64,000 bases of DNA from an uncultured Victivallales bacterium (GCA_964424705.1 CAYRKB010000001.1:22575-86574), one strand, 5' to 3'. Shown: positions 1 through 24,718, counted from the first letter of the stretch. Notes: generated by a model not told the origin, from the sequence alone. Numbers and translations: made by a program.

Positions 1-1
1 C

Positions 2-160
2 GTCATCGGCAGTCGCTGCAAGCAATCCGGCATGCACTGGAGCGTGCCCGGCGCCCAACACGTCCTCGCCTTGCGCTGCATCCACGCCAGCAATCGCTTG
101 GCTGACTTCTGGAAACATCGCCTCTATAACCACGCCATACCACTCGCCCGGGCCGCCTGA
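2..160 (+). CDS. 3' end of an upstream gene truncated by the window edge; product unknown (C-terminal fragment ...GMHWSVPGAQHVLALRCIHASNRLADFWKHRLYNHAIPLARAA*)
   Basis: Open frame 2 runs from the window edge to TGA at 158-160 with no in-window start. I recognise no family; a vague transposase-C-terminus impression is unsupported. Confidence 0.3.
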   Translation, partial: VIGSRCKQSGMHWSVPGAQHVLALRCIHASNRLADFWKHRLYNHAIPLARAA

Positions 161-376
161 CGGAAGAATCTTGTCTCGCACCCTACGTTCCTGGCAGAAC
201 AGGGGCGCTGCTTCGGCCGGTCCGTCAGATCGCGGACGCGGATTGGGTGGCGTAACGGAGGATTGTGCCTTGGCCGGTATTGGCCAAACCTCTTGACGGC
301 GCGGTTGTTTGTGCATCACTATGACTCCGACATCGCTGGTACGGGCTGTCAGAAAACACCACGGGAGGACGCAAGT

Positions 377-967
377 ATGAAACTGGCATGGGTTCGGGTT
401 TTGATTGCGGCGGCAGTGCTCTCTTGTTGCTTTGCAGCGCTTGCGGGGGAAGACGCGGAAAAGGGCATCAAGGGGAAGGTCCAGGAGGTGGGCTTCGGCA
501 AGTTCAAATTGGCGGAGAAGAGCGGCACCGGCTGGCTGTTTCACCTCTCGAAGGATGGCACGGTGTACAAGCCCGACGACTGGCGCCCGATGGTCGGGGA
601 CGAGGTATCGGTGGCGCACATGGAGGTGCTGCGAAAAGGAAATCCCATCTCCCAGGCAACCAGCGTCACGCTCCTCAAGGCCGGGCCCAACACGCCGAGG
701 ATCCAGAGCCCCGTGGAAGTCCAAATAGCGGAGGTTGGGCGCAGCGGGTACAACGCCAAGATTTCTTCATCGGGGCTGATTGTCAAGTTCGCCAGTCACC
801 GTGGCACCAAAGTCGTTCCGGCCGGCTGGGTCCCCGCTCCCGGCGAAAAGGCTATCATGACGTTCACCGTTAAGTCGGCAGGCGTCTTCTCGGTGGGTTC
901 CGCGGGGTTTGGCGGGATCGTGTATGCTGTGGACAAGGTGGAGAAGGCAGGCGCCGGAAGCAAGTGA
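377..967 (+). CDS. secreted hypothetical protein (N-terminal signal peptide)
   Basis: ATG at 377 is preceded by GGAGG. The N-terminus MKLAWVRVLIAAAVLSCCFAALAGE is a classic signal peptide. The mature part is beta-rich, Gly/Val/Lys-rich, with two similar halves. The track ORF 263..967 begins further upstream, but the internal Met is the likely start. Confidence 0.6.
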   Translation: MKLAWVRVLIAAAVLSCCFAALAGEDAEKGIKGKVQEVGFGKFKLAEKSGTGWLFHLSKDGTVYKPDDWRPMVGDEVSVAHMEVLRKGNPISQATSVTLLKAGPNTPRIQSPVEVQIAEVGRSGYNAKISSSGLIVKFASHRGTKVVPAGWVPAPGEKAIMTFTVKSAGVFSVGSAGFGGIVYAVDKVEKAGAGSK

Positions 968-1049
968 CGGAGCTAGCGAGCGGCACCCATCAGCAGGAGA
1001 CGAAAGGTTCTTTTTGCCTTTTCCGGCACGGTAGCAGAAAGGCCGTAGC

Positions 1050-2567
1050 GTGAGCTGTCACAAGCGGATCAGCGACTTTGAGTTCGAGGCCAGGGAGATC
1101 GGCGAGGCGGTACGGCAGGGCCGGCTGCTCTCCATGGAGATTGAGTTCAGCCAGAAGTGCAACTTCGAGTGCAAGTACTGCTATGTGCCGGGGCGCACCC
1201 ATGCGCGGCCCGAGCTGTCGGCGGAGGAGAGCAAGGATGCCATCCTCCAGGCGCGCGAGATGGGCGCAAAGAAGATCATCGTGCTCGGCGGCGAGCCGAT
1301 GATCTACCCGCTGATCCGGGAAATGATCGAGTACATCCGCAGCCTCGGCCTGGATGTCGAGGTGTTCACGAACGGAAGTCAGATCACCGCGGATATGGCG
1401 CGGTTCCTGGCAGGCCACCAGGTGCGCGTGGCGCTGAAGATGAACAGCCGCCAGCGGCACGTGCAGGACGTCTTGTGCGGGCGTGACGGCGCGCACGAGA
1501 TCATCTGGGACGCCTTTCGCAACCTGCAGGACGCCGGGTATCCTGCGCCTGACAAGTTCCTGGCCGTCAGCACGGTGATTTGCCGGGACAACGCGGACGA
1601 GCTGGTCGAGCTCTGGGCGTGGCTGCGCGAGCAGAATATTGAGCCATACTTCGAAATGATCACGCCGCAGGGGAATGCGGCGCGCAATGAAACGCTCGAC
1701 GTTCCCGTCGAGAAGGCGAGGGCGATCTTCCAGGCCATCGCGGAGATTGATCGGACCCGCTATGGCATCCACTGGGATCCGCAGCCGCCGCTGGTTGGCG
1801 GCCGTTGCCTGCGGCACTGCTTTTCCTGCCTGCTCAATGCGTATGGCGACGTGATGCCCTGCGTGGGCGTGACGATCCCGCTGGGCAACATTCGCGAGAA
1901 GAAGCTGAAGGCAATCCTGCGCGATAGCGAAGTGCTGCAGGACCTGCGGAACTACCAGAACATGATCAAGGGCCCCTGTGCGGCGTGTGACAAGGCGATG
2001 GAGTGCTACGGCTGCCGCGGCGCGGCGTACCAGATGACCGGGGACTACCTGGCGTCGGATCCGATGTGCTGGCACAATACGGACCGGGAGACCGATATCG
2101 TCCGGCTGCCGGCGCCGGTGGGCAGCATGATCCCGCACGCTGCGCCCATGCGCTTGGTGGATACGCTTCTCATGATGGGCGAACGGACCGCCGTGGTGGA
2201 AATGGTTGTGCCGTCACGCGGGCCGTTTGTGGCCGATGACGGCCGCCTTGATGAGACGGCCTATCTTGAGATCCTGGCGCAGGCGGCGGCCGTCATGAAT
2301 GGCTTTCGCACCCTTCGCAATGGCGCGCTCCGGCGGGGCTATCTGGTGGGCGCGCAAGGCCTGCAGATCCTTGGCGAGGCACGGGCCGGCGACCGCCTTC
2401 AGGCGACGGTCTTCAAGGAGACGCGGTACGGCGACTTCGGCGTGGTCCAGGGGACTATCACCCGCGGGTCGGAGCTTCTTGCGAAGGGCGAGATCAAGGT
2501 CTGGCATGAAGGAGGGGGCGTCACGCCTTCCCAGGGCGAGCCGCCTCGGGTCGCGTGCGCCGTTTGA
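1050..2567 (+). CDS. radical SAM / SPASM-domain enzyme fused to a C-terminal hotdog-fold (FabZ/MaoC-like) domain
   Basis: The CNFECKYCY motif (CxxxCxxC) lies near the N-terminus. A second Cys-rich region (CLRHCFSC...C, CAACDKAMECYGC) is typical of a SPASM twin auxiliary-cluster domain. The last ~130 aa (YLEILAQAAAVMNG...GEIKVWHE) resemble hotdog dehydratase/thioesterase folds. GTG start at 1050; an alternative ATG at 1134 is possible. Confidence 0.8.
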   Translation: MSCHKRISDFEFEAREIGEAVRQGRLLSMEIEFSQKCNFECKYCYVPGRTHARPELSAEESKDAILQAREMGAKKIIVLGGEPMIYPLIREMIEYIRSLGLDVEVFTNGSQITADMARFLAGHQVRVALKMNSRQRHVQDVLCGRDGAHEIIWDAFRNLQDAGYPAPDKFLAVSTVICRDNADELVELWAWLREQNIEPYFEMITPQGNAARNETLDVPVEKARAIFQAIAEIDRTRYGIHWDPQPPLVGGRCLRHCFSCLLNAYGDVMPCVGVTIPLGNIREKKLKAILRDSEVLQDLRNYQNMIKGPCAACDKAMECYGCRGAAYQMTGDYLASDPMCWHNTDRETDIVRLPAPVGSMIPHAAPMRLVDTLLMMGERTAVVEMVVPSRGPFVADDGRLDETAYLEILAQAAAVMNGFRTLRNGALRRGYLVGAQGLQILGEARAGDRLQATVFKETRYGDFGVVQGTITRGSELLAKGEIKVWHEGGGVTPSQGEPPRVACAV

Positions 2568-2572
2568 ACGAT

Positions 2573-3223
2573 ATGCGCAATGTACTTTGTCTTCTGCTGG
2601 CAGCCTCGCTGCTGATGCCGGCGGCCGCGCGATGCGCGGAAACGAACGCCGCGGCGGGAGCGAACGCGATGCGCGTCATCCAGGAGCGGCTTGGAACTGT
2701 GCGGACGGTACAGGCGGACTTTGAGCAGGAGAAGAACATTTCGCTCTTCAAGGAGAAGGTAGTGATTGTGGGACGGATCTACCTTGAGAACCCGGGGCGG
2801 TTCGCCTGGCACGCCGAGAAGCCGGTGCGCTATCGGCTTCTGATTAACGGGGATGACGTGCGGCAGTGGGATGAGGATACGCGCCAGGCGCAGCGCGTGC
2901 CAGTGGCGGGGAACCCTCTGTTCAAGATGGCGACCGGACAGATGCGCGACTGCTTTGCCGGGCGCTACGAGGGGATGCTGAAGGAATACGACATGACCGT
3001 ATCGGGCGATTCCACGCTGACGATCCGGTTTGTGCCCAAGCCCGCCGCCCTTACGGCGAAGGCGCTGCGGGCGTTGGAGGTGACGCTGCAGGAAAAGGAT
3101 CTCTACATTTCCAGCATTCGTTTTGAAGATCTCAATGGCGACGCCACGACAATCCGGTTCAAGAACGCAGTGTTGAACGAAGCCATCGACTCCCGGGACT
3201 GGGAGGTCGTGCCGCGTGAGTAG
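2573..3223 (+). CDS. LolA-like outer-membrane lipoprotein carrier family protein (periplasmic)
   Basis: ATG at 2573 lies 5 nt after the rSAM stop. The signal peptide is MRNVLCLLLAASLLMPAAA. The LolA-family signature region ...VRTVQADFEQEKNISLFKEKVVIVGRIYLENPGRFAW... is present. The track ORF starts at 2555 and overlaps the upstream gene. Confidence 0.7.
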   Translation: MRNVLCLLLAASLLMPAAARCAETNAAAGANAMRVIQERLGTVRTVQADFEQEKNISLFKEKVVIVGRIYLENPGRFAWHAEKPVRYRLLINGDDVRQWDEDTRQAQRVPVAGNPLFKMATGQMRDCFAGRYEGMLKEYDMTVSGDSTLTIRFVPKPAALTAKALRALEVTLQEKDLYISSIRFEDLNGDATTIRFKNAVLNEAIDSRDWEVVPRE

Positions 3224-5624
3224 ACATCCGTTTCTAGTCATCCACGGCTTCTGTCAACGCCGCCGGCGTCTACTCCTAGCCCTTTCCGCTGCCGCGACGC
3301 TGGCCGCTGGCGTCTCGCTGTGGTTCGTCCAATACGACAAGACGCTGGACGCCATGCTGCCGGCTCGCAGTTCGATTCCCCGCGTGATGGAGGTCCTCCG
3401 CGACGCCCACCTTTCGAACAAGATCGCCATCAGCGTCGGCTCTGCCGTGCCCGGAGCCTCAGTGCACGATATCATGGCCGCGGCCGACGGCCTGGCAGCG
3501 GCGCTTGGGCAATCGCCGCTGATCATCCAGGCCACGTCGGATTTTTCGCGCCTGGCGTCTATTGACGACATGGCCCTGTTCTTCCAGGCGGCGCCGGAAC
3601 TTCTGGGAGAGCAGGACCTCCTTGCGATGGCGGCCGATGTGACGCCGGATGGGGTCCGTAGCGTGCTAAGGCGGCGATATGTGCAGCTCATGAAGCCCGA
3701 GGGAAACTTCCTCGCGTCCTCGATACGTGCCGACCCTTTGGGGTTCCGCTGGCGGGCCGTGGAGCGGCTGCAGTCCGTGATGTCGTCCTTCGGGTACGAT
3801 GTCAACATGGTCGAGGGTCACCTCGTAAGCCGCGACGGACGGCGCTGCATGATTGTGGCCGAAACCCCGATTGCGCCAACCGACAATGTCGGCTCCCTGG
3901 CGTTGTCGAAGGTGCTGGCCGAGAAGGTCAAGATGCTGCCGAAAGGCTTCACGGCGGATACGATCTGCGGGCACATGCATACGGTGAGCAACGAGCGCAC
4001 GATCAAGCGGGACATTGCGTTGACCAACACGGTGGCGACCCTCGCATTCCTTGCGCTCTTCTTCGTGGTGTTCCGTGACAAGTGGGCGGTGTTCACGCTT
4101 CTTGCCATTCCTGTCTCGGCGTCGTTGATCGCGATTCCCCTGACGGCCTTGGTCTTTGGAAGGGTCGCCCTGATCGTGGTCGGCCTGGGTTCGGTGATTG
4201 CGGGCGTGTCCGTCGACTATGCCATGCATGTGTACGTCGCGTCGCGCCGAAGCGGGAACGCGGCGGAAGCCCTTATGCATGTCGCGCTGCCAGTTTCGGT
4301 GGGCGCCCTGACGACCTGCGGAATGTTCGTGGCGTTTATCTCGTCCAGCGTGCCCGGCTACCACCAGCTGGCGGTCTTCTCGATCCTGTCGATCGTCCTT
4401 GCGCTCGTCTTCGCGCTCGCGGTGTTTCCTCACTTTGTGAGGCGCGGGGAAGTCGGGCTGGCCAGCGGCGGGGAGAAGGGCGTCGTGGCGCCACGGCTAG
4501 CCCCTCGCGGCGTGGTTACGGCGTGGGTCGGGCTGTTCGCGCTCTGCCTCTGGGGGTGCCGCGGCCTCGGATTCGATTCCAATATCCTCCGGATGGACGG
4601 CACGGAGGAGAGTATTCTGGCCGGGGAAAACCGTTTCTACGCGGCGTGGGGACAGGGGGATACGAACCAGGCGATTGTCGTGTGTGAGGGCCCGACGGCC
4701 GAGGCCGCGCAGCGGGCGAGCGACGAGGTGTATCGGGCTGTGCGGGCTACGGGCGTTGAGGCGGGGGTCGCCACTTTGTCCGCGGTGTGGCCGTCGCAGC
4801 GTACGCGGGAGGAGAATCTCGCGCGGTGGCAGTCGTTCTGGGACGCTGAGCGCGTCGCGCAGCTGCGGCAGACGCTGATGCAGGAAGGCGAGGGGTTTGG
4901 TTTCGCCACAAATGCCTTCGATCCATTCTTCGAGGGCCTGGCTGGACCCGCTGGCGCGCATGCGGGAGACGTTACGAACGGGCTGCTCACCCGGCTGCGG
5001 GGGCAATTCTTGCAGCAAAAAGGCGGCGGCTGGCAATGTCTCTCGTTCTACCCGGATACCCCGGCCATGCAGGCGCTCGTAAAAGCCAGGGACGGCAACG
5101 GGCATCGGGTATTCATGGTTTCTCCGCAGGCGGTGGCGGGCGACCTGTCGCGTATCTACGCCTCGGAGATTCTCCGCATTTCGACCGTCGCCGTCACAAT
5201 TATCCTGCTCGTGACTTTTGCCCTCGTGCGGAATGTGCGAGTGGTAGCAATCTCTCTGATCCCGTCTCTAACCGCGGTGGTGGCCCTCCTCGCGGCTATG
5301 GCTGTGAGCGGACGGATGGTGAATATGGCGAACGTCTTCGCAGGGATTGTGGTCTTCGGCCTCAGCCTCGACTACGGGTTCATTATGATGCACTCGTACC
5401 GGCATCGCCTGACCGATTCTGCCAGGGTCTCCGTGCACGTTTCAGCGATCACCACGGTGATCGGCACGGCGGCCCTGCTTTTCGCGCACCACCCTGTGCT
5501 GTTCTCGCTTGGGATCACGCTGACGATCGGCATTCTGGCCGGTTACGTGACGGCGATGTGGGTGGTGCCGGCGCTCTACAGCCTGTGGGTGGAGCCGCGC
5601 GGCGGGGAGGGGGCCCCGTCGTGA
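3216..5624 (+). CDS. MMPL/RND-superfamily exporter (HpnN-like lipid transporter)
   Basis: 802 aa with two blocks of ~6 TM helices and two large periplasmic loops, the typical MMPL topology. The GTG start overlaps the LolA-like stop by 8 nt, indicating translational coupling. Confidence 0.85.
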   Translation: MSRHPFLVIHGFCQRRRRLLLALSAAATLAAGVSLWFVQYDKTLDAMLPARSSIPRVMEVLRDAHLSNKIAISVGSAVPGASVHDIMAAADGLAAALGQSPLIIQATSDFSRLASIDDMALFFQAAPELLGEQDLLAMAADVTPDGVRSVLRRRYVQLMKPEGNFLASSIRADPLGFRWRAVERLQSVMSSFGYDVNMVEGHLVSRDGRRCMIVAETPIAPTDNVGSLALSKVLAEKVKMLPKGFTADTICGHMHTVSNERTIKRDIALTNTVATLAFLALFFVVFRDKWAVFTLLAIPVSASLIAIPLTALVFGRVALIVVGLGSVIAGVSVDYAMHVYVASRRSGNAAEALMHVALPVSVGALTTCGMFVAFISSSVPGYHQLAVFSILSIVLALVFALAVFPHFVRRGEVGLASGGEKGVVAPRLAPRGVVTAWVGLFALCLWGCRGLGFDSNILRMDGTEESILAGENRFYAAWGQGDTNQAIVVCEGPTAEAAQRASDEVYRAVRATGVEAGVATLSAVWPSQRTREENLARWQSFWDAERVAQLRQTLMQEGEGFGFATNAFDPFFEGLAGPAGAHAGDVTNGLLTRLRGQFLQQKGGGWQCLSFYPDTPAMQALVKARDGNGHRVFMVSPQAVAGDLSRIYASEILRISTVAVTIILLVTFALVRNVRVVAISLIPSLTAVVALLAAMAVSGRMVNMANVFAGIVVFGLSLDYGFIMMHSYRHRLTDSARVSVHVSAITTVIGTAALLFAHHPVLFSLGITLTIGILAGYVTAMWVVPALYSLWVEPRGGEGAPS

Positions 5625-6316
5625 TGAATGCGCTAAGCGGAAAGATGTTGCGCCTTTGGGTGCCCGTCATCCTCGGTGCCTGCCTAGGGGCGGGCTGCGC
5701 GACGGTTCGCTGGGAGTCGCCGCAGCGTGCCGGGTCGGCCCCTGAGCCGGCGGCGGCCCTGCAGGCCATGTCCCGGGGTGCGCCGGTGCGGCTGCAGGTT
5801 GTCAACTCCGTCCTGTTCGAGTATCGCGGGCGGAAGATGTCGGGCCTCGGTTTTCTGGACGTTGACGTGGCGACTCGCTCCTTCGGATTGGCCTGCATGG
5901 CGCAGTCCGGCGTAACGCTGTTTGAAGTGACGGGCACCAATGGAGCCGTGCGGTGCCATTTCGCGATGCCGGCTCTGGCCGGGCGCGGAGAGGCTTTCGC
6001 CAAGGTTCTCGGGCGTGACGTGGAGCGCATGTTCTTCGATGTGCAGCCGCCGGCCGGCGCGGCGGTTGGATTCGAGCCAGGGGCCGCTGTGTTTTCCGAC
6101 GTCAGGGGCTCCGGGCGGGTGGAATGGATTGCGGGCTGTGACGGCGGCCTGTTGGAGAAGCGCTACTACGAAGGCAGGCGGCTGGTTTGCAGGGTAGGGT
6201 ACTACGCGACCGTCGGACACTCAGGGCGCAGGATACCGGGGCGGGTCTGCCTGCAGAATCTCAAGGATGGGTACGGTCTCACCATCACAATGCGGGAGAT
6301 CCGGCGATGCGACTGA
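5624..6316 (+). CDS. lipoprotein of unknown function (lipobox LGAGC)
   Basis: ATG overlaps the MMPL TGA (TGATGA). The N-terminus MNALSGKMLRLWVPVILGACLGAGCAT is a signal peptide ending in a lipobox Cys. This gene completes the LolA-like/MMPL/lipoprotein triad seen in lipid-export loci. The track ORF 5036..6316 is an upstream in-frame extension. Confidence 0.6.
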   Translation: MNALSGKMLRLWVPVILGACLGAGCATVRWESPQRAGSAPEPAAALQAMSRGAPVRLQVVNSVLFEYRGRKMSGLGFLDVDVATRSFGLACMAQSGVTLFEVTGTNGAVRCHFAMPALAGRGEAFAKVLGRDVERMFFDVQPPAGAAVGFEPGAAVFSDVRGSGRVEWIAGCDGGLLEKRYYEGRRLVCRVGYYATVGHSGRRIPGRVCLQNLKDGYGLTITMREIRRCD

Positions 6317-6687
6317 CGAAAGGAAGACGAAGAAAGCAGAGCCCTCCCTATCGCGCAGCGTGCCAATAACGGGATCATGATAGTTGCAGCATTCCTTCGG
6401 CTTCGCTTGCACTTTCCCCGGGGCGGAGTACCTATTGTGGAAAGCACCTGCTCGAGAGTCGGATCGTCATTTGCGATCTCAGAAAACGAGGAGATCTTCT
6501 GCTTTTCGCCAAGCCCGGAAAGAGCTGCTGAATTACGAAATGCGCGAAGGTCACGAAGACAGGGCGCTGATGACGAATCGGAGTGCGCCAACTGCGGTGA
6601 CTTGAACTGCTCCTTGTTGGCGGCAAGAAGGGCGTTGTATTGTGGCGCCATTTTCTGCGACACTGCGTTCGCGTTGTGGCTGCACTT

Positions 6688-7947
6688 ATGAAGACCGCGC
6701 AAAAGATTAGCTTTCCTCGGGAGTTCATCCGGCTGATCCCGAAGACGGATCTGCACGTGCACCTTGACGGCTCGCTGCGCCTGCAGACGCTGATCGACCT
6801 GGCGCGGACGGAACGTGTGAAGCTGCCTTCGTTCGAGCCTGGCGGCCTGCGGGAGCTGGTGTTCAAGGATAAGTACGCCAGCCTGCGCGAGTACCTTCTC
6901 GGGTTTCAGTATACCTGCGCGGTGCTGAACAAGGCCGACCACCTTGAGCGGGTGGCGTTCGAGCTGGCGGAGGACAACATCGCCGAGGGCGTACGCTACG
7001 TGGAGCCCCGCTTTGCCCCGCAGCTTCACGTGCAGCCGGGGCTGACGATGGAGCATGCCGTGAGCGCCGTGGCGCGGGGCCTCGACAGGGCGCGGCGCTC
7101 CCACAACGCAACGCGCGCGGTGACGCAGGGGAAGGACCTGCCGTTCGAGTTCGGCATCATCGTTTGCGCCATGCGAGCCTTCAACAGCCGGATGGGGCAC
7201 TACTTCCGGGAGCTGCTTTCCGTCATGCCGGGCGCGCCCCGTCGCGAAGTCTACGTGGCCGCCTCCCTCGAGCTGGTGCGGGAGGCGATTGACCTGCGGG
7301 ACCGGTGCGGGCTGCCGATTGTGGGATTCGACCTGGCGGGCGAGGAGGCTGGATATCCGGCTTGCGACCACGTCAAGGCGTACCAGCAAGCGCAGGATAA
7401 CTTCCTCAAGAAGACGGTGCATGCGGGCGAGGCGTACGGGCCGGAGTCCATCTTCCAGGCGATCACCTGCTGCCATACCAACCGGCTCGGACACGGAACG
7501 TTTCTTTTCGCGCAGGACATGCTGCAGGACAAGTCGATCGTGAACCCGTCCCGCTTCGTGGATCAGCTGGTCGAGTACATCGCCAGTGAACGGATTCCGG
7601 TCGAGGTGTGCCCGACGAGCAACCTGCAGACCAGCCCGCAGATTCTCCTGATGCAGGACCATCCTCTTCGGCACATGCTGAAGCATAACCTCTCGATCTG
7701 CATCTGCACGGACAACCGGCTGGTGTCGAACACGAGCGTTACGGGCGAGCTGGAGAAGGTGGCGGAGAATATGTCCGTCACGCGGCGCGACTTCCGCAAT
7801 CTTATCATCGCCGGGTTCAAGGGAAGCTTCTTTGCGGGGAGCTACAACGAGAAAAGGCAGTTCGTGCGCAAGGCCATTCGCAGGTACGACCTGCTGGCGA
7901 GGCGTTGGCTAGGGCCCGATCATTCCGTGTCGGACGAGATGGGGTAA
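6688..7947 (+). CDS. add: adenosine deaminase
   Basis: The metal-binding motifs DLHVHLDGS and HAGE and a C-terminal SNLQT-like region are present, with overall length and order as in Add. The ATG at 6688 (MKTAQKISFPREF) is preferred over the track start at 6640. Confidence 0.85.
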   Translation: MKTAQKISFPREFIRLIPKTDLHVHLDGSLRLQTLIDLARTERVKLPSFEPGGLRELVFKDKYASLREYLLGFQYTCAVLNKADHLERVAFELAEDNIAEGVRYVEPRFAPQLHVQPGLTMEHAVSAVARGLDRARRSHNATRAVTQGKDLPFEFGIIVCAMRAFNSRMGHYFRELLSVMPGAPRREVYVAASLELVREAIDLRDRCGLPIVGFDLAGEEAGYPACDHVKAYQQAQDNFLKKTVHAGEAYGPESIFQAITCCHTNRLGHGTFLFAQDMLQDKSIVNPSRFVDQLVEYIASERIPVEVCPTSNLQTSPQILLMQDHPLRHMLKHNLSICICTDNRLVSNTSVTGELEKVAENMSVTRRDFRNLIIAGFKGSFFAGSYNEKRQFVRKAIRRYDLLARRWLGPDHSVSDEMG

Positions 7948-7953
7948 GCTGCG

Positions 7954-8757
7954 ATGTGCCGACCTCTTATTCTGCTGACGAATGATGACGGCATCGAGTC
8001 GCCGGGCCTGCGCGCGGCCGCGGAAGCCGTCTTAGACCTCGGCGACCTGCTGATTGCGGCGCCGCGGCATCAGCAGTCTTCCATGGGCCGCAGCCTCTGG
8101 GGCAACCGCAATGACCGGCTGGAGCCCTGGGACTACGAGGTGCTGGGGCAGCGCGTGCCCGCCTACGCCTGTAACGCCGCGCCGGCGCTGACGGTGCTTC
8201 ACGCGCTGCACGTGCTCTGCACCGGGCGGCGTCCCGCGCTGGCGGTTGCCGGCATCAACTACGGAGAGAACCTCGGGCGCAACGTCACGCTCTCCGGCAC
8301 CGTGGGAGCCGGGCTGGAGGCGGCCAGCCTCGGCGTGCCGGCGCTGGCGATGTCGCTGCAGACGGACGTGGAGTCGCACTATTGCCACGGCGAGGAGGAC
8401 TGGACGGGGGCGAAGCACTTCACGCGCTGGTTTGCGCGCCGCATGCTGCGCGCCCGCATGCCGCACGACGTGGATGTGCTGAACGTCAACGTGCCCCGCG
8501 GGGCGTCGGCCGATACGCCCAGCCGGATCACCCGGCTCTCGCGGCACTCCTATTTCTCGATCCAGATGGATGCGCCCGGGCTTCACAGCCGCATCAGCGA
8601 CGGGCGCGTGGGAGTCTACCTTGACCGCGCGCTCATCGAGGTGGATTCCGATATCCACGCGCTGGCCGTCGAGCGGGTGGTGTCGGTCTCTGCGCTCAGC
8701 CTGGACCTGACGTCGCGGGTGGCGCTGGGCTCGCTGGACCACCTGCTGCAGGAGTGA
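7954..8757 (+). CDS. surE: 5'/3'-nucleotidase SurE
   Basis: The N-terminal ILLTNDDGI motif is present and the 267-aa length fits the SurE family. Confidence 0.9.
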   Translation: MCRPLILLTNDDGIESPGLRAAAEAVLDLGDLLIAAPRHQQSSMGRSLWGNRNDRLEPWDYEVLGQRVPAYACNAAPALTVLHALHVLCTGRRPALAVAGINYGENLGRNVTLSGTVGAGLEAASLGVPALAMSLQTDVESHYCHGEEDWTGAKHFTRWFARRMLRARMPHDVDVLNVNVPRGASADTPSRITRLSRHSYFSIQMDAPGLHSRISDGRVGVYLDRALIEVDSDIHALAVERVVSVSALSLDLTSRVALGSLDHLLQE

Positions 8758-8761
8758 TGCC

Positions 8762-9364
8762 GTGAATGTGCGACGCATGTTGCTGGCGGCTGTCGCTCTG
8801 GCGTTCCTGCTGCCCGGCGCCGCGCCGGCGCGCGAGGGACGTTGGACCGTCTACAAAGACTGCCAGCTTCAGGAGAACCCGTCGAACGACGGGGACAGCT
8901 TCCACGTCAAGACGGCGCGGTACAAGTACCTGTTCCGGCTCTATTTCGCGGATTGTCCTGAAACCAGCCGGCAGGTGCCCGAGCGCGTCAAGGAGCAGGC
9001 GGCGCACTTCGGCGTTCCGGAGGATACGGTGCTCAAGGCCGGGAAGCGGGCGCGGGAGTTCACGCGCCAGTTCCTGGCGCGGGGATTCACCGTTTCCACG
9101 AAGAAGGAGGACGCGCGCGGCGCGAGCCGGGTGAGACGCTACTATGCGGTGGTGGAGGCCGGGGGCAAGGATCTTGCCGAGGAGCTGGTGGCGCATGGGC
9201 TGGCGCGGGCCTACGGCGAGGGCACCAACCTGCCGGACGGCGGGGACGAGCATCGCTGGCGCGGAAAGCTGGCGCGCGCGGAGAAGAGCGCCAGGGCCCA
9301 GCACCTGGGGATCTGGCGCAACGATCGCGAGCCGGCTGAGCCGAAGGCCGGCGGGGAGCCGTGA
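8762..9364 (+). CDS. secreted thermonuclease (staphylococcal-nuclease/SNase-like) family protein
   Basis: The signal peptide is MLLAAVALAFLLPGAAPA. The SNase-like core includes ...KYLFRLYFADCPE...GLARAYGEG...HLGIWRN. Start is GTG at 8762 or ATG at 8777. Confidence 0.8.
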   Translation: MNVRRMLLAAVALAFLLPGAAPAREGRWTVYKDCQLQENPSNDGDSFHVKTARYKYLFRLYFADCPETSRQVPERVKEQAAHFGVPEDTVLKAGKRAREFTRQFLARGFTVSTKKEDARGASRVRRYYAVVEAGGKDLAEELVAHGLARAYGEGTNLPDGGDEHRWRGKLARAEKSARAQHLGIWRNDREPAEPKAGGEP

Positions 9365-9365
9365 C

Positions 9366-9968
9366 ATGGATCGACCGGGCATGGAGCTGCGGCTTCCGGC
9401 GTGGGTGGGCGAGGTGCTCTCCCGCTGCGGAGACACCTATTTCTCGCAGGAGGACCGCATGGGGCTGGTCCTCCGCCTGGCGGAGGAGAACGCGCGGCGG
9501 GCGACCGGCGGGCCTTTTGCCGCCGCCGTGTTTGAGGTGGAGAGCGGGCGACTCGTGGCGCCCGGGGTGAACATGGTTGTGCCCGCGCGCTGCTCAAGCG
9601 CGCACGCGGAGATTGTCGCGCTGTCGGCTGCGCAGCAGCGTCTCGGCACGTTCGACCTGGGCGCGGCAGGCCTGCCGGCGCACGAGCTGGTCGCCAGCGC
9701 CGAGCCCTGCGCCATGTGCATGGGGGCGGTGCCGTGGTCGGGCGTGCGGCGGCTGGTGTGCGGCGCGCGGGGCGACGATGTCTGCTGCATCGGCTTTGAC
9801 GAGGGCGCGAAGCCGGCCGACTGGGTCCGGGCTCTGAAATCGCGCGGCATCGAGGTGCGGCGCGACGTCCTTCGCGCGGAGGCCGCCGCCATCCTGCAGC
9901 GCTACGCGGCGGCGGGCGGGCAGATCTACAATGGCAGCCGGGCCGGGGCTGCGGGCGCGCCCGAGTAG
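9366..9968 (+). CDS. CMP/dCMP-deaminase-fold nucleoside deaminase (TadA/GuaD-like)
   Basis: The zinc-ligand motifs HAE(IVAL) ... PCAMCMGA are present. ATG at 9366 lies 2 nt after the thermonuclease stop. The first part of track ORF 9144..9968 is an out-of-frame overlap with the upstream gene. Confidence 0.75.
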   Translation: MDRPGMELRLPAWVGEVLSRCGDTYFSQEDRMGLVLRLAEENARRATGGPFAAAVFEVESGRLVAPGVNMVVPARCSSAHAEIVALSAAQQRLGTFDLGAAGLPAHELVASAEPCAMCMGAVPWSGVRRLVCGARGDDVCCIGFDEGAKPADWVRALKSRGIEVRRDVLRAEAAAILQRYAAAGGQIYNGSRAGAAGAPE

Positions 9969-10056: not shown

Positions 10057-11235
10057 ATGCTGTATCGCCGATTCGGAAAGACCGGGCTGAACATGCCTGT
10101 GCTCACGTGCGGGGGAATGCGCTACCAGCAGTCCTGGCAGGACATCGATCCGAAGGATCTTGACGCGAAGGTGCAGGACAACGTCGCCGCCACCGTGCGG
10201 GCCGCGTACGCCGCCGGCATCAACCACATTGAAACGGCGCGCGGCTACGGCTCCAGCGAGTACCACCTCGGGTTCGTGCTCCCCGAGCTGCCCCGCGACA
10301 AGATCATCGTGCAGACAAAAGTCGGCCCGAAGGCCAGCGAGTCGGAATTCCGGGCGACGTTCGAGACGTCGCTGCGGCACCTGCGCCTGGCGCGGGTCGA
10401 CCTGCTCAGCGTGCACGGCCTCAACACGCGCGAGTTGCTGGCGGAGACGCTGACGAAGGGGACGCTCAAGGCCTGCCGCAAGCTTCAGGACGAGGGGCTT
10501 GTCGGCCACGTGGGCTTCTCCTCGCACGGCCCGCTCGACGCGGTGCGCGCCGCCGTTGAGACGGGCGAGTTCAGCTATGTCAACCTGCACTGGTACTATT
10601 TCGACCAGCAGAACGGGCCTGCGATCGAGGCCGCGCGCGCCCGTGACATGGGCGTGTTCGTGATCAGCCCCTCGGACAAAGGCGGCAAGCTCTATGCGCC
10701 GCCGGCGAAGCTGGCGCGCTTGTGCGCCCCGCTGGCGCCGATGACGTTCAACGACCTCTTCTGTCTTTCGCGGCCCGAGGTGCACACCCTGAGCATCGGC
10801 GCCGCGCGCCCTTCCGACTTTGACGCGCACCTCGCCGCCCTGCCGCACCTCGCCGACCCCGGGAGCGCCCTGCGCCCGGTGCTGCAGCGGCTGCAGGAGG
10901 AGGGGCGCCGCTGCCTCGGCGCGGAGTGGTATGATCACTGGTCCGAGGGCCTGCCGCCGGTCGTGAACATCCCGCAGCCCGTGCCGCTCTATCACATCCT
11001 GCGCCTGTTCAACCTCGTCAAGGCGTTCGACATGCTGGAGTTCGGGCAGATGCGCTACAACCTGCTCGGCGGCGCCGACCACTGGTTTCCGGGCCACAAG
11101 GCCGCGGAGTTCGACAAGGCCATGCTGCTCGCCGCCCTGAAGGGCTATCGCTTTGCCGACCAGGTTCCGGACCGCCTGCGGGAGGCCCACAGCCTTCTTA
11201 ACGGCGAAGACAAACAGCGCCTGAGCAAATCATGA
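10057..11235 (+). CDS. aldo/keto reductase family oxidoreductase
   Basis: The AKR N-terminal signature MLYRRFGKTGLNMPVLTCGGMRY, a GINHIETARGYG-type motif and a (beta/alpha)8 layout are present. At 392 aa it carries a C-terminal extension. Confidence 0.85.
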   Translation: MLYRRFGKTGLNMPVLTCGGMRYQQSWQDIDPKDLDAKVQDNVAATVRAAYAAGINHIETARGYGSSEYHLGFVLPELPRDKIIVQTKVGPKASESEFRATFETSLRHLRLARVDLLSVHGLNTRELLAETLTKGTLKACRKLQDEGLVGHVGFSSHGPLDAVRAAVETGEFSYVNLHWYYFDQQNGPAIEAARARDMGVFVISPSDKGGKLYAPPAKLARLCAPLAPMTFNDLFCLSRPEVHTLSIGAARPSDFDAHLAALPHLADPGSALRPVLQRLQEEGRRCLGAEWYDHWSEGLPPVVNIPQPVPLYHILRLFNLVKAFDMLEFGQMRYNLLGGADHWFPGHKAAEFDKAMLLAALKGYRFADQVPDRLREAHSLLNGEDKQRLSKS

Positions 11236-12449
11236 AACGGGGCTTTCTCGATAAACTGATTGAGCGGCTGGACCGGCTGGATCCAGCCAGCCTGCAGACG
11301 CACTTCCTTCGCCTTGCCCAGGAGCGCGGGCTGCTGGAGACTATCTTCCAGTCGATCCAGGAAGGGGTGGTGGTGATCGATGCCGGGGGGCGCCTGAGCT
11401 ACGCCAACCGCGCCGCGGAGCATCTGCTGGGATTCTCTTTCGAGTCCGCGCAGGGCCGCCCGGTGGCCGGCTACATCCGCGATATTGACTGGGATCGCAT
11501 CCTCAAGCTCGATGCCGGCGAATGGTCGAAGCTCATCACGCACGAAATCGAGATTACCTATCCGCAGCACCGCTATGTCAGCTTCTACGTCGTGCCCCTG
11601 CTGACCACCGAGCCCGTCTCGGAGGAGGGCGCGGTCGTGATCCTGCGCGATGTCACGCACGACCGCATTCACGAGGCGAGCCTGCTGGAGTCCGAGCGGC
11701 TCAACGCCATCAAGCTGCTGGCGGCGGGCGTCGCGCACGAGATCGGCAATCCGCTCAACGCGCTGCACATTCACCTTCAGCTGCTTGAGCGCGAGCTGCA
11801 GGTGCTCAAGAAGCCCGCGCGGGAGCCGCTGGCCGAGCTGGTGCGGGTGGCCCGCAACGAGGTCTCGCGGCTCGACCTGATCATTGCGCAGTTCCTGCGT
11901 GCGATCCGCCCCTCGAAGCCCAAGTTCGCCCTGGCGCAGATCGAGACCATCCTGCGCGAGGTCCTGGTGCTGATGCAGCAGGAGATCAAGGACCGCGGCG
12001 TCACGGTCGAGGTGGGCGCGCAGGCCCCGCTGCCCAAGACCCGCGTGGACAGGAATCAGATCAAGCAGGTCTTCTTCAACCTCATCAAGAATGCCTCGCA
12101 GGCCATGCCCGGCGGCGGCATCTTGCGAATCACCCTTTCCGCCACGGATCAGTTCTACGGGATTTCGTTTCAGGATACGGGGTGCGGCATCAAGCCGGAG
12201 GATTTCGGGCACATTTTTGACGCGTACTACACGACGAAGGCGGAGGGCTCGGGCCTCGGGCTGATGATCGTTCAGCGGATCGTGCAGGAGCACGGCGGGC
12301 AGATCAAAGTGGTGAGCCTGCCGGAGAAGGGGACGAACTTCACGATCCTGCTGCCGCTGGCCGAGCGGCGAATCCGCCTCCTGAAGGCGCCCTTGGCGGC
12401 ATCGGGCGCCTACGATTTCGAGCCCCCGGGCGGGCAGGCCGGGGAGTGA
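11232..12449 (+). CDS. sensor histidine kinase (PAS - HisKA - HATPase_c; NtrB/AtoS-like)
   Basis: The H-box is HEIGNPLNALHIHLQLLE. The N/G boxes NLIKNASQAM...GGG and GSGLGL are present, with a PAS-like N-terminus. The start overlaps the AKR stop (ATGA). Confidence 0.85.
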   Translation: MKRGFLDKLIERLDRLDPASLQTHFLRLAQERGLLETIFQSIQEGVVVIDAGGRLSYANRAAEHLLGFSFESAQGRPVAGYIRDIDWDRILKLDAGEWSKLITHEIEITYPQHRYVSFYVVPLLTTEPVSEEGAVVILRDVTHDRIHEASLLESERLNAIKLLAAGVAHEIGNPLNALHIHLQLLERELQVLKKPAREPLAELVRVARNEVSRLDLIIAQFLRAIRPSKPKFALAQIETILREVLVLMQQEIKDRGVTVEVGAQAPLPKTRVDRNQIKQVFFNLIKNASQAMPGGGILRITLSATDQFYGISFQDTGCGIKPEDFGHIFDAYYTTKAEGSGLGLMIVQRIVQEHGGQIKVVSLPEKGTNFTILLPLAERRIRLLKAPLAASGAYDFEPPGGQAGE

Positions 12450-12486: not shown

Positions 12487-13899
12487 GTGTTTGCCATGAA
12501 AGAGCCGAAGAAGAAGCCGGTTGTTCTGATTGTCGATGACGACAAGAACACGCGCGAGGGGCTGTCGCGCGCGCTGCGCGACGCCTACAACGTCCTGGCG
12601 GCGGACAACGGCGCTGCGGCGCTGGAGCTGCTGGGCGAACACCCCGTCGAGATTCTCCTGAGCGATGTCAGGATGCCCGGGATGGATGGCATTACGCTGC
12701 TGCAGCGCGCCCTGGCGCGCTGCCCCGGGCTGCTGTGCATTCTTCTGACGGCGTACGGTAACGTCGAGACGGCCGTGGAAGCGATGAAGCTGGGCGCGTA
12801 CGATTTTCTCATGAAGCCGGTGAATCTCGACCACCTCGATCTGCTGCTGAAGCGCTCTCTGCGGTCGCGGGACGTGGAGGCGGAGAACGCCACGCTGCGC
12901 GAGGAGCTCGATTCACGGTACGGGCTGGAGAGCATCCTGGGCGAGTCGCCGGTCATGCGTCAGCTCTTCGATGTGATCCGCCAGGCGGCCCCGACGCAGG
13001 CCACCGTGCTCATCCAGGGCGAAAGCGGGACCGGCAAGGAGTTGGTGGCGCATGCGATCCACCGCCTGAGCACGCGAAGCAAGGGGCCGTTCGTCGCGGT
13101 GCACTGCGCCGCGCTGGCGCCCAGCCTGCTGGAAAGCGAGCTGTTCGGCCACGAGAAGGGCGCGTTCACGAATGCGCTCGGGCGCCGCCGTGGCCGCTTT
13201 GAACTGGCGGACGGCGGGACGCTGTTCCTGGACGAAATCTCGGAGATTGAGCTCTCCGCGCAGGTGAAGCTGCTGCGCGTCCTCGAGGAGCGCCAGTTTG
13301 AGCGCGTGGGCGGCGACGAGACCGTGGAGGTGGATATCCGGCTCATTGCCGCCACGAATCGCAACCTGAAGAAGCGCGTGGAGGAAGGCAAGTTCCGCGA
13401 GGATCTGTTCTTCCGCCTCGACGTGGTGGACATCACCTTGCCCCCGCTGCGCGAGCGGAGCGAGGACATTCCGATCCTTTGCGACAGCTTTGTCCGGGAG
13501 TTTGCGGAGAAGAACCAGAAGCATCTGGAAGGCATCACGCCCGATGCGGTGCAGGTGCTCGCGGCGCATCCGTGGCCCGGCAACGTGCGGGAGCTGCGCA
13601 ACACGGTGGAGAAGATGGTGGTGCTCGGGCGTGGCCCGCGCCTGACCGCGCGCGATATTCCCGCCAGCATCCGCGACACGGTGCGGGACGCGGCGCCGGG
13701 CCTGCTGCCCCAGCGGCGCACGGTGGTGGCGGTGGGCGAGTCGCTCGCCGCCACGGAGAAGGCGATGATCATGGCCGCGCTCCTGAAGCATGGCGACAAC
13801 AAGACCAAGGCCGCGCAGGAGCTCGGGCTCAGCCGCCGCACGCTGCACCGCAAAATCAGGGAGTACAAGGCGGAACTCTCCGCCGGCCCATCGGCCTGA
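12487..13899 (+). CDS. sigma-54-dependent response regulator (NtrC family)
   Basis: The receiver domain is VLIVDDDKNTREGL...D. Walker A GESGTGKE, an intact GAFTNA/GAFTGA-type segment (EKGAFTNALGRRRGRFELADGGTLFLDEI), an arginine finger and a C-terminal Fis-type HTH (LGLSRRTLHRKIREY) are all present. Confidence 0.9.
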   Translation: MFAMKEPKKKPVVLIVDDDKNTREGLSRALRDAYNVLAADNGAAALELLGEHPVEILLSDVRMPGMDGITLLQRALARCPGLLCILLTAYGNVETAVEAMKLGAYDFLMKPVNLDHLDLLLKRSLRSRDVEAENATLREELDSRYGLESILGESPVMRQLFDVIRQAAPTQATVLIQGESGTGKELVAHAIHRLSTRSKGPFVAVHCAALAPSLLESELFGHEKGAFTNALGRRRGRFELADGGTLFLDEISEIELSAQVKLLRVLEERQFERVGGDETVEVDIRLIAATNRNLKKRVEEGKFREDLFFRLDVVDITLPPLRERSEDIPILCDSFVREFAEKNQKHLEGITPDAVQVLAAHPWPGNVRELRNTVEKMVVLGRGPRLTARDIPASIRDTVRDAAPGLLPQRRTVVAVGESLAATEKAMIMAALLKHGDNKTKAAQELGLSRRTLHRKIREYKAELSAGPSA

Positions 13900-24000: not shown

Positions 24001-24718
24001 GAAGGCCCGGGCTGTTCAGGCGAGCGTGGAACTTATGCAACAATGCCTTGGCCCGCAAGGAAGCGGCACTCCGAGCTGGTATTTGCAGGGCGATGATATG
24101 TCCGTGTATGGCCCGGTTGACTTGCCTCAGCTTTGGGCCTGGGCCTGCCAGAGCCGCATTGGTCCGAAGCACAGCGTGTCGCAGGACAAGAAGAACTGGG
24201 TATTGGCCGAGACCGTTCCCGAACTTCGCATGGAATGGATCTGTAAGCTGCCTGACGGAGCAGACCTGGGCCCGCTCAACCCCTTTGCATTCAGGGATCT
24301 GGTTGCAGATGGGTTCGTAGATCCCGGGCAAGCTGTCCAGAACCACCTGAGTGGCGAGACGATTGCGGCCGGGGAGCTGGTTAAGGCCACTGAGGGCGGA
24401 GCGCTTTTGCGACATTTGGGACCGGGTCCTGACGGACGGGAATGGAAGCAGCGATGTTCCGCAGCTGAAGAACGAGGCAGGCTTGTTGACGAGGAGTTGG
24501 CCAGAGTGGGTAGCCTTTTCGAAGCTGAGAAGGCCCGGCGGCTTCAACTTGAGCATGATCTATTGAGGGCGCTTGAAGAGCTGGCTGGTGCGACGGCCCG
24601 GTTCCAGCTTTCCGTTGAAGCTCAGGGGCAGGGCGGAGCCGTGCCGCCACGGCGTCTGAGTGAGAAGCTTCTTGCCGCAGATCGGGCGGCGCGGGCCCTC
24701 AAGGGAACAAAGGGATAA
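21092..24718 (+). CDS. giant coiled-coil protein with N-terminal and twice-duplicated internal GYF-like (DUF4339) domain pairs
   Basis: The W-x-Y-x-GP-V...EL...W...ELxMEW pattern (WHVKFSEDCVFGPVGLPEL...; WYLQGDDKSVYGPVDLSELWAWA...ELHMEW) recurs three times. Long heptad-rich Ala/Glu/Lys/Arg segments lie between them. The track start is GTG at 21092; an ATG at 21167 (MFKLHES) with an upstream GGAGG is an alternative. Confidence 0.75.
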   Translation: MLKALEEKSGNKYKGAGYFGGQQGRMFKLHESQVRNEGAGQRWHVKFSEDCVFGPVGLPELRDWAEQGRIVAGNLLSRDRESWMPAESLPELDMMWVAELGGRRRFGPFNLATVPLLVKRGKINRATPLQHCSTGEVRLVSSVLESGAKQLTYSIPAPVTVRTADVKTDGEPRSSGAEKGGPAAPVAVKRIQDEGLPDRNDQAHKALRSELSALQESVARAKQELEMERVRAVALESAANQKQGHAADVEKKLAAEKNLREEQADRLKKTQAEAAAFAAKATKVEAELNRELSAATERAAVAAREVAAERSRAAALESAANQKQGQAADIEKKLAAEKKQREEQAERLKQAQFEAAAFAAKATKVEAELKRELSAATERAAVAAREVEAERSRAAALEAAANQKQAHAVEIEKRLAAEMKLREDQAGRIDKLERELKARAEEVGLAAGQLDEQRKARAGLEAQMRRSERDQAERSKQSQAEAVSLSTKAATLEAELKQARSDAAESAAAAVREGEERIRAHEALQRELAALQERAVQARREVEAERSRSVTLEYTASQKEGHAAEIESKLAAEKQQREGQSALLKEARAKVSAVGAKVAALEKAFAEERHLHEEVVRKWLAKEADLSGRIGKLEQALKNKAEEAVRAVAQLVEQKNAHAGLEERGQRRELDLTGQIGRLTAENVELQAGVRQSADELARARAGLARAAEASVELMQQYLGPQGSGKPTWYLQGDDKSVYGPVDLSELWAWACQSRIGPKHSVSQDKKNWVMAETIPELHMEWICKLPDGVDIGPLNPFAYRDLVADGSVDPGQVVQSRLSGETIAAGALVKATEGGTFLRRTSTDADRQKMKDLEACLAQARRELEEASGRSRTLEGAIGQKEGQVAGLEKNLAAEKKLREDLAGRIDKLERALKDKTDEAGRAAAQLGEQKKEHAGLEMRSQVQELELKGQIGRLTDESSRRALQLETEKARAVQASVELMQQCLGPQGSGTPSWYLQGDDMSVYGPVDLPQLWAWACQSRIGPKHSVSQDKKNWVLAETVPELRMEWICKLPDGADLGPLNPFAFRDLVADGFVDPGQAVQNHLSGETIAAGELVKATEGGALLRHLGPGPDGREWKQRCSAAEERGRLVDEELARVGSLFEAEKARRLQLEHDLLRALEELAGATARFQLSVEAQGQGGAVPPRRLSEKLLAADRAARALKGTKG
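21791..22400. repeat. intragenic 243-bp (81-codon) tandem repeat, ~2.5 copies, first two copies near-identical
   Basis: The unit gcgctggagtccgccgccaaccagaagcaagg... restarts at 21791, 22034 and 22277. It encodes LESAANQKQGxAADxEKKLAAEK...AAFAAKATKVEAELxRELSAATERAAVAAREVxAERSRAAA. Confidence 0.8.

Follow-up and report, generated by a model that had tools for sequence, protein, structure and literature searches.

Organization of the locus

Four open reading frames (ORFs) lie on the + strand at positions 1050-6316 of a 64-kb stretch of DNA from an uncultured bacterium (GCA_964424705.1, CAYRKB010000001.1:22575-86574; the whole stretch is called the window below), and probably encode an enzyme that tailors a lipid and three proteins that export it. 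The first gene (1050..2567) encodes a fusion enzyme of 505 aa, in which a radical S-adenosylmethionine (SAM) core (aa 31-188; 1140..1613), a SPASM region (aa 253-340; 1806..2069) and an ApeP-like hotdog domain (about aa 350-488; 2097..2513) follow one another, as defined by Pfam and NCBIfam profiles, an AlphaFold2 (AF2) model and Foldseek searches. Behind it come a predicted periplasmic LolA-like carrier (ApeL-like; 2573..3223), recognized by Pfam LolA and by a cluster profile hidden Markov model (HMM); an 802-aa inner-membrane transporter of the RND/MMPL type (ApeM-like, related to HAE3 and HpnN; 3216..5624), recognized by Pfam, NCBIfam and a cluster profile HMM; and a 230-aa lipoprotein, probably of the DUF3261 family (ApeN-like, LolB-like; 5624..6316), placed there by family-level Pfam matches and its lipobox.

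The genes are tightly packed. The fusion gene stops at 2565-2567 (TGA) and the LolA-like gene starts at 2573-2575 (ATG; an alternative in-frame GTG lies at 2555), the transporter start (GTG, 3216) overlaps the LolA-like stop (TAG, 3221-3223) by 8 nt, and the transporter stop (TGA, 5622-5624) and the lipoprotein start (ATG, 5624-5626) have one base in common. These ORFs and junctions, which an earlier note on this DNA had described, were borne out by direct reading of the sequence. Because the genes overlap or abut, and because a promoter and terminator scan of window positions 1-7000 gave no signal exceeding the shuffled expectation in or around the four genes, the layout fits a single operon from 1050 (possibly from 377) to 6316. 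An Rfam scan of the whole window returned zero matches.

The fusion enzyme

The N-terminal core of the fusion protein belongs to the radical SAM superfamily: Pfam PF04055 matches aa 31-188 with 78 bits against a cut-off of 29.5 (E 9e-22), and both the C37xxxC41xxC44 triad and the SAM-binding motif G80-G81-E82 are invariant in alignments of 26 and 81 sequences. Further along (aa 253-314), a match to PF13186 with 32.8 bits against a cut-off of 21.5 (E 9e-8) places the enzyme in the SPASM subfamily. That subfamily is marked by a seven- or eight-Cys motif, Cx9-15Gx4C ... Cx2Cx5Cx2-3C ... C, and two auxiliary [4Fe-4S] clusters. In the window protein the motif reads C253-x12-G266-x4-C271, C310-x2-C313-x5-C319-x2-C322 and C340, with C260 in addition, and each of these Cys residues (253, 260, 271, 310, 313, 319, 322 and 340) is conserved in 80-81 of the 81 sequences; the eight would be enough for two fully ligated auxiliary [4Fe-4S] clusters. 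Conserved Cys columns number 13 across the 81 members: the triad (37/41/44), the eight of the SPASM region and two extra ones, Cys3 (80/81) and Cys178 (79/81), which stand outside the radical SAM and SPASM motifs. The N-terminus agrees with the family consensus, MxSC..I..FEF, and of 136 family columns with ≥95% conservation the window protein keeps 134.

The AF2 model of the fusion protein, made from the 26-sequence alignment, has a predicted local distance difference test (pLDDT) score of 84 and a predicted TM-score (pTM) of 0.83. When compared to the PDB by Foldseek, its N-terminal two-thirds resemble SPASM/twitch radical SAM enzymes (SkfB, SuiB, PqqE, anSME and BlsE), with GDGT-MAS (PDB 7tom) as a distant structural match at rank 48. 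The equivalog cut-offs of NCBIfam were missed throughout: NirJ2 scored 131 bits against 500, AhbD 129 against 500, PqqE 95 against 381 and MftC 87 against 265, and GeoRSP, another of the best matches, was also far below its cut-off. Since all of these matches are far below threshold, the fusion protein belongs to no named NCBIfam equivalog. With the characterized SPASM enzymes (anSME, PqqE, SuiB, SkfB, AhbD/NirJ) it has in common the CxxxCxxC core and GGE motif, a complete set of SPASM Cys residues and the overall fold. Unlike them, it carries a C-terminal acyl-acyl carrier protein (ACP) dehydratase-type domain, besides reaching none of the NCBIfam equivalog thresholds and having neither peptide- nor tetrapyrrole-related genes as its context.

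That radical SAM enzymes can act on lipid chains is established: Tes and Gms are lipid-modifying radical SAM enzymes with SPASM domains (PMC13459092). So far, only the ladderanes and the Jaw5 product have been proposed as ketoacyl-lipid targets of radical SAM enzymes (PMC13459092). Tes/GDGT-MAS, Mss and Gms act on membrane-lipid tails and not on ACP-bound chains, while Jaw5 belongs to a polyketide pathway; a hotdog domain is described for none of them, unlike the window fusion.

The C-terminal part of the protein had been read in the earlier note as a hotdog domain. This fold is supported by the AF2 model and by its Foldseek match to 6qsr_B, with a target-normalized TM-score (TMt) of 0.80, an rmsd of 2.3 Å, 25% identity and an E of 2.4e-10; PDB 6qsr is 'The Dehydratase Heterocomplex ApeI:P from Xenorhabdus doucetiae', in which ApeP is chain B. 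FabZ-type structures are further Foldseek matches of the domain, and phmmer against chain 6qsr_B gives an E of 1.9e-4. In Pfam, the ApeP-like family PF22817 matches aa 356-439 of the window protein with 20.9 bits, below the gathering score of 27, and is precomputed for all of the 120 best fusion homologues. As modelled, the C-terminal domain is thus confirmed as a hotdog fold of the ApeP type. Searched for by itself in the exhaustive library, the hotdog domain yielded 312 representatives at E ≤ 1e-10, comprising fusions and stand-alone proteins of about 145 aa.

Is the fusion real? A frameshift or an assembly artefact had been mentioned as a possible source of it. The identical protein is found on seven contigs, the six shown being from six different sequencing runs, and the 120 best homologues all have the same three Pfam domains, with lengths of 471-520 aa except for one of 720 aa; the fusion is therefore not an artefact. 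A word-indexed search gave 1,841 fusion homologues at E ≤ 1e-10, and at least 578 loci have a relative of the fusion when one genome per species is taken. Among the matches listed, the relatives are from Nitrospirota/Thermodesulfovibrionia, Omnitrophota, Geobacteraceae, Desulfobacterota and Syntrophales, and also from Planctomycetes, Verrucomicrobiota, Kiritimatiellia and Victivallales/Lentisphaerae. A neighbor-joining (NJ) tree of the fusion proteins, drawn with no bootstrap, puts the window protein and its closest relative (P0002) among Victivallales, Kiritimatiellae and Lentisphaerae sequences, and by this tree the window organism would belong to the Planctomycetes-Verrucomicrobia-Chlamydiae (PVC) group.

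Larger fusions were also seen. One 720-aa protein (P0051) consists of radical SAM, SPASM, ApeP-like and LolA domains, and a single open frame spans the LolA-like and MMPL genes of L069 (2575-4410). Both of these gene fusions may be real, or they may be sequencing or gene-calling errors. In L008, a contig that nearly equals that of P0051 in length, the fusion gene is a normal ORF of 517 aa.

Two putative halves of a dehydratase site

The FabZ active site lies at the dimer interface, with the His from one subunit and the Glu from the other. The equivalent positions in the fusion were placed by alignment to what we take to be the E. coli FabZ sequence. The Glu equivalent, E407 (in 'LEILAQ'), is invariant in 81/81 fusion sequences. 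The position of the FabZ His ('DG-x-L') is R399 in the window protein and variable in the family (K, T, I, R, V), where it is never predominantly His. A self-sufficient FabZ/FabA enzyme has the His of GHFP and a Glu or Asp in the same type of subunit; in the fusion, E407 is present and the His is absent. The nearest stand-alone ApeP-like proteins likewise keep the Glu and vary at the His position. In those relatives that have the full gene cluster (described below), an ApeI-like protein is encoded four genes downstream of the fusion, and it has the GHFP His in 48/48 sequences and a Gln at the Glu position in 45/48.

ApeI and ApeP form a heterodimeric dehydratase with a single active site (PMC8041823). 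Since the fusion has the Glu without the His, the ApeI-like protein has the His without the Glu, and the ApeI/ApeP pair provides a precedent (PMC8041823), the sequences suggest that the hotdog domain of the fusion and the ApeI-like protein could be complementary halves of one composite dehydratase site. The earlier note had reported the catalytic His as apparently missing and had taken this as a sign of a binding or thioesterase-like role. The absence is borne out by R399; the role is not implied by it, in view of the invariant E407 and the complementary His of the ApeI-like protein. A role as one half of a two-part dehydratase and as a docking module would fit the observations better than a thioesterase-like one. 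In the window and in the PVC-type clusters, the hotdog domain would either use a partner encoded elsewhere or only bind acyl-ACP.

The putative export proteins

The LolA-like protein is a member of the LolA family, scoring 53.9 bits with PF03548 against a cut-off of 23.6, and 231 bits with the cluster profile HMM. Its best NCBIfam match, the flexirubin LolA2_flexi, gives 99 bits and does not reach the cut-off of 125. The N-terminus reads as a signal-peptide-like sequence, MRNVLCLLLAASLLMPAAARCAE, and 21 of the 24 columns that are ≥95% conserved in the family are kept. The transporter scores 22.8 bits with Pfam MMPL (cut-off 20.5) and 857 bits with the cluster profile HMM, and keeps 55 of 59 conserved family columns. 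Its NCBIfam matches, HAE3 (80 bits), HpnN (72 against 752; another 22 against 1100) and BstA, are all far below their cut-offs. The lipoprotein matches DUF3261 (PF11659) weakly, with an E of 0.0048 and 17.2 bits against a cut-off of 22.3. In its family, DUF3261 is found in 19 of 25 aligned members (the window protein included), with a best E of 3e-9, and LolB in one; the lipobox Cys25 is invariant in the family, and 9 of 10 conserved columns are kept.

In the aryl polyene (APE) clusters, ApeL (LolA-like), ApeM (RND) and ApeN (DUF3261, LolB-like) constitute a proposed lipid route to the outer membrane (PMC8253772; bioRxiv 10.1101/2020.12.19.423268). With the HpnN/MmpL exporters, the window transporter would have in common the RND/MMPL fold and a role in moving lipid toward the outer membrane, and it differs from them in having a LolA-like and a LolB-like protein as its companions, as is the case in APE clusters. 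A likeness to hopanoid (HpnN) loci had been drawn as well, and this needs revising, HpnN being only a distant relative at 72 bits against a cut-off of 752.

The gene cluster in relatives

The genomic context was studied in 80 related loci, whose ORFs were clustered and representatives annotated; the fusion gene was the query of the locus search, and its presence in every locus is by construction. In the relatives, the fusion gene is part of a conserved, co-directional cluster of up to 17 genes. The 5' block consists of a ketoreductase (KR, of the short-chain dehydrogenase/reductase (SDR) type), a phytoene-desaturase-like FAD oxidoreductase, a ketosynthase (KS), an ACP, a lysophospholipid-type acyltransferase (LPLAT) and a PaaK/ApeH-like AMP-ligase. 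The middle block comprises the fusion, LolA-like, MMPL and DUF3261 genes, and the 3' block the ApeI-like hotdog protein, a 4HBT thioesterase, a KS, a truncated KS resembling a chain length factor (CLF), two B12-binding radical SAM enzymes and a glycosyltransferase (GT). As annotated, the gene set is that of an APE-type type II polyketide synthase (PKS)/fatty acid synthase (FAS) cluster, with radical SAM enzymes and a desaturase-like flavoenzyme in addition.

The LolA-like gene adjoins the fusion in 72 of the 80 loci, and the MMPL gene is present in 67. A ligase and/or acyltransferase gene lies immediately upstream of the fusion in 77 of the 78 loci whose upstream sequence is 500 nt or longer; in L008, there is a ligase fragment about 1.1 kb upstream, with another ORF between. 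Most related loci carry synthase genes where the sequence reaches, and a few have no ligase or only a partial cluster. In the PVC group, a 10-gene version of the cluster stops after DUF3261 (L007, L010, L024, L034 and L089). In four Nitrospirota loci (L057, L068, L069 and L074), the acyltransferase and fusion genes have no AMP-ligase between them; the contigs of L069 and L074 are short, L057 and L068 are otherwise full clusters, and the cluster can therefore do without the ligase. ORF clustering and annotation found no locus resembling those for peptides that are made ribosomally and modified post-translationally (RiPPs) among the related loci examined. A peptide context for the orthologues, which had been named among the findings that would speak against a lipid cassette, is thus not seen, and the neighbors are type II FAS/PKS lipid genes and lipid exporters.

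The reduced layout in the window

The window holds only the four middle genes of the cluster. Its closest relative, P0002, has a fusion protein that is 83% identical, on a 7.3-kb contig with no ligase or acyltransferase upstream; the order is fusion, LolA-like gene and a long ORF running to the contig end, the lipoprotein gene being beyond its reach. Since the tree puts the window protein and P0002 among Victivallales, Kiritimatiellae and Lentisphaerae, the four-gene layout would most simply have come from the 10-gene layout of the PVC group, which was secondarily reduced or split up. The cassette is not visibly decaying, judging from the ≥95% conserved columns that its four proteins keep (134/136, 21/24, 55/59 and 9/10, in gene order).

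Other loci are also incomplete. In L088 (8335-11473), a 52-aa FAD-oxidoreductase fragment and an AMP-ligase accompany the fusion, with no exporter; in L012, exporter genes are absent from the 10 kb after the fusion; and the contig of L013 ends 2.6 kb after the fusion, with no exporter up to there. In two different PVC-type loci with a reduced layout, a URO-D family gene lies upstream of the fusion: in L001, which covers the window locus and its upstream sequence (969-2030, - strand, about 6.5 kb away), and in L088 (4932-6029, + strand, 4 kb away), and L088 and L089 are flanked by GFO_IDH_MocA oxidoreductase genes. These neighbors probably reflect common ancestry of the region and not a functional link.

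Comparison with known clusters

The APE clusters of E. coli, Xenorhabdus and Acinetobacter contain the trio of LolA-like, RND and DUF3261-lipoprotein genes in the same order as the window (PMC8253772). Relatives of the window cassette also have ApeI-like, ApeH-like ligase, ApeD-like acyltransferase and ApeK-like thioesterase genes in common with them, as well as KS/CLF, KR, ACP and glycosyltransferase. The window itself has the export genes of an APE cluster and lacks adjacent chain-building genes. There is an APE precedent for fusing half of the dehydratase to a pathway enzyme, since A. baumannii has its ApeI joined to the ligase ApeH as ApeH::ApeI (PMC8041823). The E. coli APE gene table, on the other hand, lists no radical SAM/SPASM enzyme (PMC8253772), whereas the window has ApeP fused to one. 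The relatives further differ from APE clusters in having the phytoene-desaturase-like flavoenzyme and two B12 radical SAM enzymes, and their hosts are mostly anaerobes. The APE product uses an aromatic starter acid, while the window cluster type is likened to APE from its genes.

Clusters similar to those of the relatives were noticed by Rattray et al. in 2009 in Kuenenia stuttgartiensis (kuste3335-3352), Desulfotalea psychrophila (DP185x), Geobacter and Pelobacter carbinolicus, with SAM radical enzymes, a 'phytoene dehydrogenase', a 'phenylacetyl-CoA ligase' and an Mmp-like membrane protein (PMC2649909); the gene list of Javidpour et al. 2016 agrees with this type of cluster (PMC4790861). Several FabF paralogues, FabG, ACP and a glycosyltransferase are also common to these and to the full clusters of the window relatives. 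'Ladderane' biosynthetic gene cluster (BGC) calls, of unknown function, have been made in Desulfobacterota, Verrucomicrobiota, Omnitrophota and other non-anammox phyla (PMC9902471). The host groups in common with such 'ladderane-like' clusters are Geobacteraceae, Pelobacter, Desulfobacterota, Omnitrophota, Verrucomicrobiota and Planctomycetota, and the likeness to the Rattray-type clusters, with their radical SAM genes kuste3342/3343 and DP1853/1855, is one of gene content and host range. A literature search on radical SAM, aryl polyene, LolA and MMPL found no relevant paper, and the fusion is not mentioned in a paper on anammox evolution (PMC12758564, GBE 2025) or in a 2026 amxFabF preprint. 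The earlier remark that no described pathway was known to use such a fusion with such an export module needs dividing: the cassette is not free-standing, its very widespread cluster family having already been noticed (PMC2649909, PMC9902471), while the fusion as a constant central element does appear to be undescribed in the papers searched.

The anammox-specific 'Cluster I' (kuste3603-3608), which is now favored for ladderane synthesis, is different from the window cluster type. We know of no ladderanes from any of the phyla that carry the latter. Polyunsaturated hydrocarbons usually come from the Ole/Pfa pathways. A link between the window cluster type and the polyunsaturated hydrocarbons of D. 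psychrophila (PMC2649909) is treated here as unproven.

Flanking genes

Upstream of the cassette are two proteins without a family match, followed by divergently oriented genes. The nearer gene (377-967, + strand) lies 83 nt upstream of the fusion gene and encodes a secreted protein of 196 aa that matched no family in Pfam and NCBIfam scans; inspected by eye, it shows a tail rich in Gly and two beta-rich halves that resemble each other. On the sister contig, that of P0002, a 182-aa protein without a Pfam match lies directly upstream of the fusion gene. The 377-967 protein may be a lineage-specific addition to the operon, although this is uncertain.

Directly downstream (6640-9968, + strand) is a run of nucleotide-metabolism genes with a GC content of up to 0.69-0.72: an adenosine deaminase (6640-7947), a SurE 5'-nucleotidase (7954-8757), a secreted SNase-like nuclease (8762-9364) and an ORF with an HAE...PCxxC motif of the cytidine/tRNA-adenosine-deaminase type (9144-9968). 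The + strand also encodes a histidine kinase of the PAS type (11232-12449) with a sigma-54-dependent response regulator after it (12487-13899), a 1208-aa protein in which a GYF_2 domain is the only recognizable feature (21092-24718), a giant protein of 1842 aa that ends in an FtsX-like permease domain (40097-45625) and, near the latter, a 979-aa DUF6785/DUF6784 membrane protein (47796-50735). On the - strand are a 633-aa protein, again recognizable only by a GYF_2 domain (35452-37353), and a pyruvate-formate-lyase-like glycyl radical enzyme with PFL-like and Gly_radical domains (60841-63081), which fits an anaerobic host.

Interpretation

On balance, the four genes are probably the functional, reduced tailoring-plus-export core of an APE-like ('ladderane-like') type II FAS/PKS lipid cluster. 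What we observe is the domains, the order of the genes, their conservation and their synteny with lipid genes, and it is from these that we infer a substrate, a chemistry and a destination. The proposal in the earlier note of a lipid tailoring-and-export cassette akin to aryl-polyene loci is upheld by the hotdog fold, the real fusion and the presence of its orthologues in lipid clusters.

How would such a cassette work? In the cytoplasm, the ApeP-like hotdog domain of the fusion would hold a 3-hydroxyacyl, enoyl or polyenoyl chain that is bound to ACP. Where a genome has the full cluster, the domain would give the catalytic Glu to a composite dehydratase site, to which the separate ApeI-like protein would give the His. 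The docked chain would thereby be presented to the radical SAM active site, where the 5'-deoxyadenosyl radical would take a hydrogen from it and the two SPASM auxiliary clusters would accept the electron. The net result would be a two-electron oxidative modification, which, judging from SPASM enzymes generally, would most likely be a C-C cross-link or cyclization, or else a desaturation. The RND/MMPL transporter would then extract the finished lipid from the inner membrane (by analogy with ApeM/ApeL/ApeN), the LolA-like protein would ferry it through the periplasm, as proposed for ApeL, and the DUF3261 (LolB-like) lipoprotein would insert it in the outer membrane, as proposed for ApeN. The chain-building genes (KS, KR, ACP, ligase and acyltransferase), which are not adjacent, would be elsewhere in the genome, or housekeeping acyl-ACP would be used.

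Several points weigh against this reading. Export to the outer membrane is a proposal, not a demonstrated fact, in the APE literature too (PMC8253772; bioRxiv 10.1101/2020.12.19.423268). Scans by tblastn and profile HMM, run over all 64 kb of the window and another 8.6 kb upstream (L001), found none of the other eleven cluster gene families, the families sought being KS, KR, ACP, ligase, acyltransferase, ApeI-like, thioesterase, CLF-like, B12 radical SAM and GT; the missing ApeI-like gene is also not near the PVC-type 10-gene clusters. The window thus presents a dehydratase half-site without a visible partner and an enzyme without a visible source of substrate. The Pfam scores of its ApeP-like and DUF3261 matches are below the gathering thresholds, and reduced layouts elsewhere, such as that of L088, show that cluster decay occurs in the group.

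A different account would make the module autonomous, with no dedicated synthase: the fusion would modify an intermediate of housekeeping FAS II, or else an ordinary membrane lipid, and the trio would export the product to the outer membrane. The absence of chain-building genes from -8.6 kb to +62 kb speaks for this, as do the reduced layout common to the sister contig at 83% identity, the conserved family residues kept by all four proteins and the retention of the fusion gene, the most persistent one in shrinking clusters (the fusion being, however, the query by which these were found). Against it, the ligase and/or acyltransferase directly upstream in 77/78 loci points to dependence on a dedicated pathway, and the hotdog domain is without the His that it would need for acting alone, which makes full autonomy rather unlikely. 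If the four genes were instead the functionless remains of a 10- to 17-gene cluster that had been lost, one would not expect intact reading frames with tight start/stop overlaps, the retention of 134/136 conserved residues in the enzyme and 55/59 in the transporter, or the same reduced layout, as far as the contig reaches, in another lineage, distinct at the species level, whose protein is 83% identical. Related PVC lineages do have partial clusters, one with an FAD-oxidoreductase fragment (L088), and the window is without any synthase genes; even so, we consider such a remnant improbable.

It could also be asked whether the SPASM enzyme is a RiPP or cofactor maturase that modifies a peptide or tetrapyrrole, like PqqE, the sactisynthases, AhbD or NirJ, with neighbors that are unrelated to it. 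Its best NCBIfam matches (NirJ2, AhbD, GeoRSP and PqqE) and best structural matches (the RiPP maturases SkfB and SuiB) are of this kind, and a URO-D family gene lies upstream in L001 and L088. However, the NCBIfam scores are far below their cut-offs (131 against 500 bits, for example), the related loci examined have no RiPP context but KS, KR, ACP, acyltransferase and lipid exporters as neighbors, and the enzyme has a domain of the acyl-ACP dehydratase type covalently joined to it. Synteny and the sub-threshold NCBIfam scores led us to reject this explanation, which we regard as very improbable.

Significance

What, then, is new in a lipid tailoring-and-export core of this kind? The literature already documents this type of cluster, such an export trio and a split dehydratase, and the cassette is not a new kind of system. 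In the papers searched, three things appear to be undescribed: the fusion as a constant central element of the cluster, its His/Glu complementarity with the ApeI-like protein, and the minimal four-gene version. A more far-reaching and distinctly speculative possibility is that the fusion represents a new class of lipid-modifying radical SAM enzyme for ACP-tethered fatty or polyketide chains, with the half-site as its docking module, which in the window would be freed from the synthase and would remodel FAS II intermediates into an exported outer-membrane lipid.

The complementary His and Glu halves offer a testable idea of how the fusion enzyme would be coupled to chain elongation. With enzyme and exporter only, the window holds a natural minimal version of the system, which could ease the finding of the substrate and of the exported lipid. 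As a widespread candidate for ACP-coupled radical chemistry, the fusion should be of interest to specialists in radical SAM enzymes and in lipids alike.

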